Virus record (IMG/VR): IMGVR_UViG_2703718801_000002
Span: 1-9,075 of that record
Reading direction: 5' to 3' (one strand)
Length of the DNA stretch: 9,075 nt
Source: a virus
Lineage: Duplodnaviria; Heunggongvirae; Uroviricota; Caudoviricetes
Shown one piece after another: positions 1 to 3,000 of this stretch (position 1 is the first letter of the stretch; each line of letters begins with the position of its first letter). The position numbers are program-made.

Positions 1-3000
1 GTCAGGGCAACGCCCTGTGGCAGTGAAGAGACCGGCCAGTAAAACGCCATAACATACTGGTTCGCAGCCAGCGCTCCCGAAACCTTAAAGCGGCAGCGAA
101 TCTGCCCCCCTTTCTGTAACAGAGCCGCACCGTTGCCCGCGGCGTACTCCAGCACCCAGCTGCTTTTACCGGCCTCCTTGGTCAGCTTCACTGCCTTACC
201 TCCGGTTCCCTCCGCATCGCTGACCACTTCTGCCCTGCCGCCACTGGCTGACCATCCCTGTACTTTCAGGCTTCCCTCTGACTCGCTGGCAAGGTAAGAG
301 AGCAGTGTTGTGACGCCTGTGGCTTCTGCACCGGAAGGCGATGAAGGGCGCACCTCTGATACTGTCGATGATGCCCCCGCGTTTAGCGCCACTCTTCCCG
401 CATGGCGCAAAATCGCCGTTGCCAGACGGTCGGAAATAATCCCACGGCGTGCCCAGGCGCTGAAATGGCTCGCCCTGTCCTGTGACGTCCAGGTGGCTGA
501 GCTGTCACGCCATTTCGAACCGTAATATCCGATACCCGGAATGTCCGGGTCTTCTTCCGGTTTGTTCGTCGGCACATTCACCCCGTTCTCATCGGTCATG
601 AACGGTACGAAATGGATATTCTTTTCCGTTTTGTTTTTATAGCTGCCGTACACCGTCTGGTACGTGGATTCGTTCTTCTGCTTCCAGAAATACGTCGTAT
701 CTCCACATATCCAGGGAACACCGCCAGCAGAGCCACCGACGCACTGACCTGCCATATCCGCCAGGTCTGCACGGAATTTATCAACCAGCGCACCAAACTG
801 TGCTGCGTGATTTGCCGGCGTACCGCCAAAATCAAATTCCCCCTGCATCCACACCACGGCAAACAGCACATTTTTCGGATTCTTCTTCAGTGCTGCTTTT
901 GTTCGACCGATAAGGTCCTTATACAGCGGCTTGTCCACACCCCAGCGGGTTGAATTCTCCGAGGCACCACTCGCGTCACTGTATGTGCCATCGGCTCCGG
1001 TGGTGAACGCTGAACCACCACGACAGCACGGAACCAGCAGAATGCCCGCATTCGCCGGTATAAACGGCAGCAATTTTTTGGCGATATGCAGCCCCTGCCC
1101 CACGGTTCCGTACTGCCCCTTTGACAGGTCCGCTTTCGGATGGTTAAGGCGGCTCATGTCCTGCACATCATGCAGACAATGGTCCGCCGGAATGATGTCG
1201 TTATATTTACAGGCGACACCGCCCGGTGTCACCGTACTGCGACGCGCCAGCTGCTTAATGCGCGGGTCCGGACGGTCATATGTCTCCGGCAGCGGAAGGC
1301 CTTCACCATATGCCATGCTGTTTGACTGCCCCGCCAGAACCACAACAAAGTAATACTCCGGGTCTCTGGTGGCGCTGATTACTGTGCCTTCTCCATCCGA
1401 CGGCTTCACCAACACAGGTGTGGTGACATCACCTTCCGCCGCAATGGCCTGCATCAGAGTATAAGGCGTGATGGCCACCGGGCTGCCAAATGGCTGCCAC
1501 CCCTCCTTCAGTTTTTGTGTCAGCTTTTCCGCAAGGTCTGACGGCGACGCCGCCCTGACAACATCATAATGTTTAATCGACATCGAATTTCTCCCGTGTA
1601 CAGGAACAGAGTTAAAAAGCCGGAACCGGAATCAAATTACAGGATGGCCATCTGCCAGTGGCTGGTCGTAAAAAAAGGCCACGCCATGCGCAGCCGGAAA
1701 TAAAGGGATAACGATGATAGTTTGAGAAAAACAGAAACAACACTTTTGTGGCAAAGCATGGTGCCGGGTGCCTCCCGGTGAGTTCAGTATCAGCACCTGA
1801 ATCCGCGATTATCCCATATACCTGGTTGCTGATCGCCCCTCCGCACAGGGGGATTCACCATGCAGAAGTGTTTTTAATAAACAGCAAATAAAAAAATCAA
1901 GCATTATGCAGGCTGTTTAACCACATCCAGCACATCTTCCGCTTCACGCGTATCGTGTTTCACATCTTCAATTTCACGCAATGCCGCTCGACGACCAATT
2001 TTAAAGTTCGTATCCAGCTGACCGATAATGGTTGCGCTAATCGCATTAATTTCTGACGTAAACGCGGACAACGCAGGCTGGTTACGCAAGACCTGCTCGA
2101 TCTTCGCTTTCTCTGAAGCCTCACATTCACCATCTGCATAGGCCACCAGATAGGCAGCATTAATAACCGCCTGTGCCAGATCACGTTTCTCAAACTTTTT
2201 AATTTCCACTGCCGCTCGGCGGGCTTTTTTACCAAAAATACCAAACATCGTGACGTTCCTTTGGGTGGGTGAGCCAACGCCCGGGAGCGATCTGCCCACA
2301 GAGAAAGTCACACTGACCACTCCGTAAGCTCACCCCCGAAAGGCTCTGTGGTTGATATGCGCCGGGCGTGGCGCAGATACAAAAAAAGCCCGCCGAAGCG
2401 AGCCTGATAATAAATCTGGAGCGGGTAGCGGGAATCGAACCCGCATCATCAGCCTGGAAGGCTGAGGTAATAGCCATTATACGGTACCCGCATATGGTGC
2501 CGGCTACCGGAATCGAACTGGCGACCTGATGATTACAAGTCAGTTGCTCTACCATTGGAGCTAAACCAGCATGTTTGGCGGGACAGCGTGGACTCGAACC
2601 ACGATAAGAAGGTTAACAGCCTTCCGTAATGACCTTTATACGACTGACCCAAATAAAAAAAGCCACCGTTGCAACTTAAGAGTCACTAACGGCAGCTTAC
2701 ATCTTTAAACGGTATGATATTTCATTCTGGCTGCCTCAAAAGCCGCAGCGGCAAGTTCGGCAGTGTCATGGTATCCAAGGTTAATACACTTTCCAGACGC
2801 ATTAATTCTTGCTCTCCATTTCCCGTACTTAGCATCCCAAGACACGCCACGGTATCCAGATTTATTATTCTTCTGAATTTTCCTGTTTTGCATATTTTCG
2901 GAATGAGTGACAAGACGAAGATTTGATATCCGGTTATCTGTTCTTACCCTGTTGATGTGATCAATAAAACCATCTGGCATGGTGCCATAAACAATCAACC

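Follow-up and report, generated by a model that had tools for sequence, protein, structure and literature searches.

The 9,075-nucleotide stretch of the IMG/VR virus record IMGVR_UViG_2703718801_000002, analysed here over its full length (the window), carries all of its genes on the minus strand, among them a cluster of three tRNA genes at 2417-2650. In minus-strand order, these are a tRNA-Asn(GUU) of the phage 21 type (2576..2650), a chimeric tRNA-Thr(UGU) of 76 nucleotides (2495..2570) and a tRNA-Gly(UCC) that is derived from glyT and carries U6-A67, C8 and G38 (2417..2491). Our analysis shows that this trio is a late-operon tRNA cassette of a stx-less lambdoid prophage and that it was made by recombination of two known phage tRNA modules. 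The three genes are real. ARAGORN made two minus-strand calls, tRNA-Asn(gtt) (2576-2650) and tRNA-Gly(tcc) (2417-2491), and the Rfam model RF00005 (gathering score 29) called all three, with 55.3 bits for Asn (2650..2579), 49.0 bits for the middle gene (2570..2498, without CCA) and 55.4 bits for Gly (2491..2420). The CCA end is DNA-encoded in each gene, and the genes are separated by 5 nucleotides (AACAT) between Asn and Thr and by 3 nucleotides (TAT) between Thr and Gly. A preceding sequence-only reading had described three tightly packed tRNA genes with spacers of these lengths and had read the anticodons GUU, UGU and UCC by hand. The RF00005 calls agree with its coordinates and its anticodons were read correctly; ARAGORN returned the same anticodons for Asn and Gly, but made no call in the window between these two genes, so that its agreement does not extend to the middle gene, which RF00005 does call. 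In public records, the middle gene is annotated as tRNA-Thr in JLK-2012 and UTME-3, and RefSeq labels an identical gene tRNA-Thr in 7 E. coli genomes; the 6 genomes that carry a variant with T68 have no call. The elements that we take to be recognized by the E. coli synthetases (G1-C72, C2-G71, G35 and U36 for ThrRS; the GUU anticodon and G73 for Asn; G1-C72, C2-G71, G3-C70, C35, C36 and U73 for Gly) were all found intact in the Thr, Asn and Gly sequences.

The middle gene has the anticodon UGU (TGT at positions 34-36) and, as the sequence-only reading had noticed, an anticodon stem of only 3 bp, in which A27.C43 and C28.U42 are unpaired. This shortening stems from the substitutions G42U and U43C. 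The T-stem mismatch that had been pointed out in the same gene is present (A52.C62), but it is not a sign of decay, being native to host thrU. Missed by that reading were two G.U pairs in the acceptor stem and, as read from the aligned sequences, a C14 that replaces A14 in the D loop, together with U8C and A38G in the Gly gene. The tRNA-Thr of phage 21 (L002, 2630-2705) likewise has C14 instead of the conserved A14 and is still reported to be functional in rescue assays (PMC12445682). Cloverleaf energies summed over canonical pairs, which we used for relative comparison alone, were -14.3 kcal/mol for the window gene (C68), -8.7 kcal/mol for the T68 variant and -21.5 kcal/mol for thrU. Thermodynamic folding was rejected as a test of function, because neither unmodified thrU nor the hybrids take a cloverleaf shape at minimum free energy, and the z-scores are weak.

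The Asn gene is identical over 75/75 positions to the tRNA-Asn of phage 21, Sf6, JLK-2012 and the O55:H7 prophage RM12579, and is only distantly similar to host asnT. Of 5426 complete E. coli genomes, 828 contain the late leader together with this Asn gene, and annotations of an Asn-Thr pair exist for phage 21, for Sf6 and BTP1 and for many P22-like phages. The description of the trio as unusual was therefore too strong, because the Asn-Thr pair is the standard late-leader module of phage 21 and Sf6 and the full Asn-Thr-Gly trio is already annotated, in phage JLK-2012 (O55:H7 DEC5E) and in 13 E. coli genomes. Elsewhere, we found the trio in 17 IMG/VR contigs, in 3 metagenome contigs and in E. 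albertii NBRC 107761; the search of metagenome and species-representative genome collections yielded only these 3 contigs and a single contig of E. albertii, and the set of haplotypes did not grow by it.

Positions 1-26 of the middle gene match the tRNA-Thr of phage 21 and Sf6 exactly, and positions 27-76 match K-12 thrU with four changes (G42U, U43C, A49G and U68C). The crossover falls in GGTAGAGCA, a segment at positions 18-26 that is common to both parents. By these alignments, the middle gene is a chimera of phage-21 tRNA-Thr and a thrU-type cassette. Such a cassette, thrU-TAT-glyT with the identical 3-nucleotide spacer, is present in the lambdoid phages vB_EcoS-683R6, phi467 (a Stx2f phage) and SerU-LTIIb, and copies at least 99% identical to that of 683R6 were found in 170 E. 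coli records. The host operon has tyrU and 116 nucleotides between thrU and glyT. As judged from this gene order, the donor of the Thr 3′ part is the phage thrU-TAT-glyT cassette and not the chromosome directly. Public records already carry annotations of the genes as such; the chimeric origin of the middle gene appears to be new. The literature search yielded nothing useful on earlier discussion of the phage-21 tRNAs or of ileZ-argN-argO. In SerU-LTIIb, the thrU-derived cassette gene (L011, 1122-1197) has the anticodon TCT, is called tRNA-Arg and shows a few changes nearby, an apparent anticodon switch of a captured tRNA-Thr.

One IMG/VR contig (L018, 1279-1512) carries a 'naive' hybrid in which the thrU arm is intact (GU at 42-43, A49, U68). 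Its cluster begins with the phage-21 Asn gene, its glyT is K-12-like and its downstream flank is phi467-like; the hybrid Thr gene is called by ARAGORN and scores 58.6 bits. A separate recombination with a phi467-type donor probably gave rise to L018. As this second, apparently independent recombinant illustrates, phage modules seem to have crossed over repeatedly within the Thr gene. From L018 we had initially inferred that the TC at positions 42/43 of the window gene arose after the crossover, an inference that we dropped because inheritance from the donor is at least as likely given contig L159. The hybrid probably inherited TC from the donor cassette rather than gaining it afterwards, because non-hybrid donors of the L159 type, which combine TCATC with the same glyT allele, exist. 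The derived cluster sits behind three upstream modules (the phage-21 PR′, the Sf6-type PR′ and an HNH insert) and precedes at least four different downstream contexts, and therefore moves as a module.

Scanning IMG/VR for the thrU-type 5′ anticodon strand while leaving the 3′ strand free returned at least 120 contigs, from which 119 copies were extracted. Among the copies listed, the 3′ strand was TCAGT in the large majority, TCATC in 4 and TTACC in 1. Pair breakage was assessed in 115 unselected phage-borne thrU-type copies, representing 30 alleles, among the matches listed. Pairs 27-43 and 28-42 were each broken in 5 alleles, always both together, and every other stem pair was broken in 0-1 allele, aside from the native mismatch 52.62; differences in the acceptor stem and the T-stem were compensatory. 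An exhaustive IMG/VR scan for genes in which position 42 is not G recovered 16 hybrid contigs and nine non-hybrid genes. TCATC was present in thrU-TAT-glyT cassettes (L089, L155, L157 and L159, the last with the same U6-A67 glyT allele as the window) and in larger clusters (L138, with the order Met-Thr-Arg-Gly, L156 and L158), TCACC in L154 and TTACC in L095. L156 and L159 are otherwise identical to host thrU (76/76), and L089, L138 and L095 are called tRNA-Thr by ARAGORN and Rfam at 56-62 bits. A search for alleles that keep G42 and change position 43 alone found none. The two pairs are thus unpaired by three sequence solutions, TCATC (G42U/U43C), TCACC (G42C/U43C) and TTACC (C40U/G42C/U43C). 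Taken as a pattern among alleles, this points to a tRNA that is under structural constraint and has a single specific defect, chosen repeatedly; it does not resemble decay.

Variation among 26 copies of the hybrid cluster, which fall into seven haplotypes, was distributed unevenly over the three genes. Asn has no variable site. Thr has one, C68 or U68, of which U is the thrU state; U68C restores G5-C68 and takes the cloverleaf from -8.7 to -14.3 kcal/mol. Gly has six variable sites (U8C, G10A, G39U, G52C, C62U and U65C), in different lineages, and five of these six changes disrupt a conserved pair or a tertiary contact. That six of seven variable events fall within one third of the sequence corresponds to a binomial p of ~0.007 in a post hoc hand calculation. 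Against K-12 glyT, the Gly gene is identical over 71/75 positions, the changes being C6U/G67A, U8C and A38G. The replacement of C6-G67 by U6-A67 is compensatory, so that the acceptor-stem change described by the sequence-only reading as T6/A66 is borne out by this alignment (position 67 is linear position 66). Gly had been treated as the canonical member of the set, but it is in this gene that the scattered disruptive variants fall. In addition, C8 of Gly replaces a near-universal U8, G38 is able to pair with C32, and in the predicted minimum free energy fold the anticodon loop is narrowed to 3 nucleotides on a stem of 7 bp. Gly shows more decay-like variation than the other two genes, which suggests relaxed constraint; being less constrained, it is probably either a passenger or a supplement of dosage or codons. 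Scattered uncompensated changes and loss of identity elements, by which a pseudogene would be recognized, were not found in the middle gene, where the one variable site in 26 copies is stabilising.

A published rule bears directly on the two unpaired positions. Lambda Gam, by inhibiting RecBCD, activates the P2 nuclease Old. Old then kills through cleavage of host tRNA-ThrU on the 3′ side of C28 and of C40, both within CNG motifs that are paired in the anticodon stem (Govande et al. 2025, PMC12445682). Old toxicity is rescued by phage tRNA-Thr(UGU) genes, explicitly including that of phage 21, and resistance was located in the anticodon arm, where shortening of the stem and alteration of a CNG motif are required together (PMC12445682). 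In the window gene, G42U turns the 3′-strand CNG motif C40-A41-G42 into C-A-U and unpairs C28, the first Old site, and U43C unpairs A27. Because these two adjacent substitutions give a shorter stem and an altered 3′ CNG motif, both published Old-resistance factors would be present; at the sequence level, the hybrid has the UGU anticodon, a stem of fewer than 5 bp and one of the two CNG strands altered. The recurrent 'unzipping' of positions 42/43 in captured thrU copies, which fits the published rule, appears to be new. The JLK-2012 phage, a relative, encodes Gam.

A second nuclease, AriB of the PARIS system, cuts the tRNAs for Lys (UUU), for Thr (UGU) and for Asn (GUU) at U36AAUC|A41, and substitutions of U39 and A41 block this cleavage (PMC12409363). 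The phage-21 Asn gene reads UAACCU at positions 36-41 where host Asn reads UAAUCC (C39/U41 versus U39/C41). In addition, neither strand of its anticodon stem contains a CNG motif (the strands read A28-A29-G30 and C40-U41-U42), where host Asn has CGG and CCG. The cluster contains no tRNA-Lys. Because the hybrid Thr retains the AriB site, it is predicted to resist Old only, and not AriB. Escape from the toxSAS enzyme FaRel2 was considered as well and rejected, since the relevant pairs are all retained in the window Thr and Gly genes, FaRel2 comes from a Firmicute and no sign of escape was seen.

On this basis, the middle gene is probably a nuclease-escape tRNA rather than a decaying one. To the whole account, in which the locus would be a recombinant cassette whose Asn and Thr tRNAs replace host tRNAs cut by nucleases, we give about an even chance. 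The sequence-only reading had left two choices for the middle gene. A decaying pseudo-tRNA is not favoured, because the same pairs are unpaired in otherwise intact phage thrU copies and the only variable site in 26 copies is stabilising; a non-canonical tRNA is favoured, with a specific published rationale (PMC12445682). Several observations weigh against the account. The full trio is rare (13 of 5426 E. coli genomes). ARAGORN misses the middle gene, and its RF00005 score of 49.0 bits is the lowest of the Thr variants (the naive hybrid scores 58.6, the phage 21 gene 61.5 and thrU 73.8). Its isolated anticodon arm has no predicted fold (0.0 kcal/mol), and its minimum free energy fold is not a cloverleaf and has a z-score of only -1.4. 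Both Old cleavage-site cytosines remain, as the hybrid keeps C28-U29-G30 and C40, and the AriB site is kept as in host thrU (UAAUCA, cut as UAAUC|A). Either Old-resistance factor alone is insufficient, and G42U/U43C is not among the variants tested in the published study (PMC12445682). The TCATC alleles possibly represent one mutation spread by recombination, which would leave only TCACC and TTACC as clearly separate events. In Gly, C28-A29-G30 and C40-U41-G42 are both still CNG motifs, so 'resistance' does not extend to every member of the trio, and because both motifs are kept, Gly is probably a passenger.

Other explanations were weighed against the nuclease-escape account. The trio might top up the supply of tRNAs for ACA, GGA and AAU/AAC during late expression, with the odd anticodon stem being incidental. 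We compared late and early genes of JLK-2012 with a 50-kb sample of K-12 (all comparisons p<0.002) and found ACA to make up 0.18 (late) and 0.31 (early) of Thr codons versus 0.10 in K-12, with corresponding values of 0.15 and 0.28 versus 0.08 for GGA and 0.51 and 0.48 versus 0.37 for AAU, an enrichment of ~2- to 4-fold over the K-12 sample. Cassettes whose thrU is identical to the host gene (683R6, phi467) also cannot be nuclease-resistant and so need another benefit. The codon-usage enrichment for which the sequence-only reading had suggested a check is present in JLK-2012 for ACA, GGA and AAU and is compatible with supplementation, but it lacks specificity: AGA (odds ratio 3.6 to 10.9) and ATA (4.2 to 6.7) are more enriched and the phage has no tRNA for either, and the enrichment is greater in early genes although the tRNAs are made late. 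Asn is, moreover, decoded by one host tRNA species that is encoded by several gene copies. Supplementation also leaves the repeated, specific unpairing of 27-43 and 28-42 unexplained, and a study of 245 phage tRNAs argues for defence evasion as their main role (PMC12445682); we regard it as unlikely.

Somewhat more unlikely, in our judgement, is that the chimeric Thr gene is a dead recombination scar, retained solely on account of its place between the useful Asn gene and the late genes, tRNA genes serving here mainly as exchange homology. The intragenic crossover does show use as a recombination site, and the low RF00005 score, the missing ARAGORN call and the T68 variant left uncalled in RefSeq would all suit a crippled by-product, as would the joining of mismatched parents, which produced the acceptor G.U pairs and a weak cloverleaf (-14.3 versus -21.5 kcal/mol for thrU). 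The phage-21 parent is likewise non-canonical (C14, G27.A43), yet experimentally active (PMC12445682). A scar would hardly be expected to show a single variable site in 26 copies, and that one pair-repairing, beside a Gly gene with six, nor to keep the presumed ThrRS identity elements and the encoded CCA, and the same G42/U43 changes occur in otherwise perfect thrU copies that ARAGORN calls, at 56-62 bits. Very improbable, finally, is that unpairing of 27-43 and 28-42 changes ribosomal behaviour independently of any nuclease, for example through looser reading of the first or third codon position. Mutations of the 27-43 pair alter the wobble behaviour of suppressor tRNAs, and a C32-G38-type pair, which A38G makes possible in Gly (an extended stem is predicted), tunes decoding; however, the published nuclease-escape rule accounts directly for the same positions.

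The tRNA cluster lies in a late leader downstream of the Q antiterminator gene (3412..3930, minus strand), which encodes a 172-residue protein of the phage 21/Sf6 type (Pfam Phage_antitermQ, 89.1 bits) and is 97% identical at the DNA level to an RM12579 gene annotated as 'antiterminator Q family protein'. A promoter scan found a PR′-like late promoter at 3405..3434 on the same strand (TTGACA, an 18-nucleotide spacer and CATAAT; 11/12 matches) with Sf6-type Q-binding repeats; the region is the same as the Sf6/RM12579 sequence as far as CCATAAT, the -10 element. The first intrinsic terminator of the leader, an 8-bp stem followed by a T run, was found by terminator scan at 3344..3364 (minus strand). 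A free-standing HNH-AP2 endonuclease gene (170 aa) follows at 2705..3217 (minus strand; Pfam HNH_3 66.1 bits, AP2 35.1 bits), inserted in the late leader between PR′ and the terminator tR′, and its counterpart at this position in E. coli UTME-3 is annotated as 'HNH endonuclease'. The open reading frame directly upstream of the tRNA genes is this endonuclease gene, not Q; the insertion, together with the second terminator between PR′ and the tRNA genes, had escaped the sequence-only reading. The HNH insert is present in 6 of the 26 loci with the tRNA cluster. Speculatively, a homing endonuclease beside a tRNA cluster could aid the spread of the cluster, and an HNH gene in this neighbourhood is reminiscent of segB in the tRNA region of T4. 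The phage-21-type late-leader terminator tR′ (2651..2700, minus strand) directly precedes the Asn gene; it has the same sequence as the annotated phage 21 terminator (PMID 1704887 in that record), and its hairpin (-20.2 kcal/mol, z-score -5.4) is followed by a T run.

Just 3′ of the cluster, the terminator scan detected an intrinsic terminator at 2386..2405 (minus strand; hairpin -12.3 kcal/mol, z-score -4.5), downstream of which lie a TerB-like gene, a match to the STnc100 small RNA and a SASA esterase gene. The STnc100 match from Rfam (1720-1889, minus strand; 99.8 bits, gathering score 47) is located between the TerB-like and esterase genes. Elsewhere in the window, 6663-6858 (minus strand) matches the C4 antisense RNA (74.3 bits), isrK (78.6 bits) and the c4-a1b1 target (50.1 bits), and these matches sit just upstream of an antirepressor open reading frame at 5939-6613 with ORF6N and P22_AR_C domains. 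The combination of C4/isrK and antirepressor amounts to an antirepressor control module of the P1/P7 immI style, carried here by a lambdoid prophage.

Aligned with an O157:H7 Stx2a prophage, the window is 99.3% identical over 3952-9075 and 95.7% identical over 1-1364. At the place of window positions 1365-3951, which hold the Q21-type Q gene, the HNH gene, the tRNA genes, the TerB-like gene and STnc100, the Stx2a prophage has ninH, Q, one tRNA-Ile, two tRNA-Arg genes and stx2AB. The window contains no stx genes. Because 1365-3951 replaces ninH-Q-ileZ-argN-argO-stx2AB in an otherwise 96-99% identical prophage, the window is, on this alignment, a stx-less mosaic relative of an Stx phage, and the statement that the trio stands in place of ileZ-argN-argO holds as a comparison.

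For the expression of the cassette, we propose that, after induction, Q-modified RNA polymerase starting at PR′ would pass the two leader terminators and the HNH gene and would transcribe the three tRNAs as a single precursor, which would then be processed to mature tRNAs with DNA-encoded CCA ends. Asn and Thr would act as late-expressed replacement tRNAs that survive Toprim nucleases, the candidates being P2 Old, triggered by the phage's own Gam, and AriB of PARIS. The 3-bp anticodon stem of Thr would be the escape feature, with 28-42 and 27-43 unpaired and the 3′ CNG motif lost. More broadly, we advance tentatively, and rate somewhat below even chances, the reading that a captured thrU is a liability, since PARIS and the Old nuclease of resident P2-like prophages cut that tRNA, and that unpairing of 27-43 and 28-42 may be a recurrent, selected, minimal route to nuclease resistance. 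On that reading, the history of the window would comprise three steps, capture of thrU-glyT, 'unzipping' of the stem and recombination with the phage-21 Asn-Thr module, and the acceptor-stem repair U68C would have followed the last of these.

Phage tRNAs have long been ascribed to codon usage, and recent experiments show that many replace host tRNAs destroyed by defence nucleases. The locus may offer a natural example in a relative of Stx phages, a host-derived tRNA-Thr with a two-base change at the stem pairs targeted by P2 Old; several unrelated phage tRNA clusters show this structural change again. If the broader reading is true, defences that target tRNAs leave in prophage tRNA genes a footprint that can be read and that could predict the nuclease that a phage lineage faced. 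Confirmation would provide a simple sequence signature for nuclease-escape tRNAs in prophages and would explain why annotation tools disagree on such genes. Besides, crossovers at tRNA genes reshuffle the modules of the late region in lambdoid and Stx-type phages.

Among known systems, the ileZ-argN-argO cluster of Stx phages occupies the same place on the map, from Q/PR′ to the genes upstream of the SASA esterase and lysis genes; it differs in consisting of one Ile and two Arg tRNAs, in its type of Q and in being followed by stx2AB, which the window lacks. The late-leader module of phage 21 and Sf6 is closer, with the same position after tR′, an Asn gene identical over 75/75 positions, the 5-nucleotide spacer and identical Thr positions 1-26. 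Unlike that module, the window has a Thr gene that is thrU-type from position 27 on, an added Gly gene, and an HNH gene and extra terminator between PR′ and tR′. By these correspondences, the locus is a recombinant derivative of the phage 21 late-leader module fused to a lambdoid thrU-glyT cassette. With the latter it shares the TAT spacer, the thrU-type 3′ part and the U6-A67 glyT allele of 683R6 and SerU-LTIIb. The cassettes differ in having a full-length thrU (76/76 versus K-12 in 683R6 and phi467) and no Asn gene, and the window differs from them in its phage-21 5′ part and in the derived changes G42U/U43C, A49G and U68C of Thr and U8C and A38G of Gly. The host operon thrU-tyrU-glyT-thrT, upstream of tufB, is where the Thr 3′ part and Gly ultimately come from, but has between thrU and glyT the tyrU gene and 116 nucleotides that are precisely absent from the phage cassette.

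The functional parallels are tRNAThr21 and tRNAThr6 (PMC12445682), which share with the hybrid the UGU anticodon, a lambdoid context with Gam, a stem shortened at 27-43 and the loss of a CNG motif next to a cleavage site, in the hybrid on the 3′ strand only. The window gene differs in reaching this state by G42U/U43C, with two pairs lost and the 5′ C28-U29-G30 kept, where Thr6 has G30C/C40G and U43A and Thr21 has U28-A42 and G27.A43, and its resistance is a prediction only. The T5 variants of tRNA-Lys, tRNA-Thr and tRNA-Asn that neutralise AriB (PMC11464382, PMC12409363) differ from the window cluster, which has no tRNA-Lys and whose hybrid Thr keeps the host UAAUC|A site. They resemble it in that Thr(UGU) and Asn(GUU) are both AriB targets and in that the window Asn has C39/U41 where the host has U39/C41, at and beside the AriB cut site.

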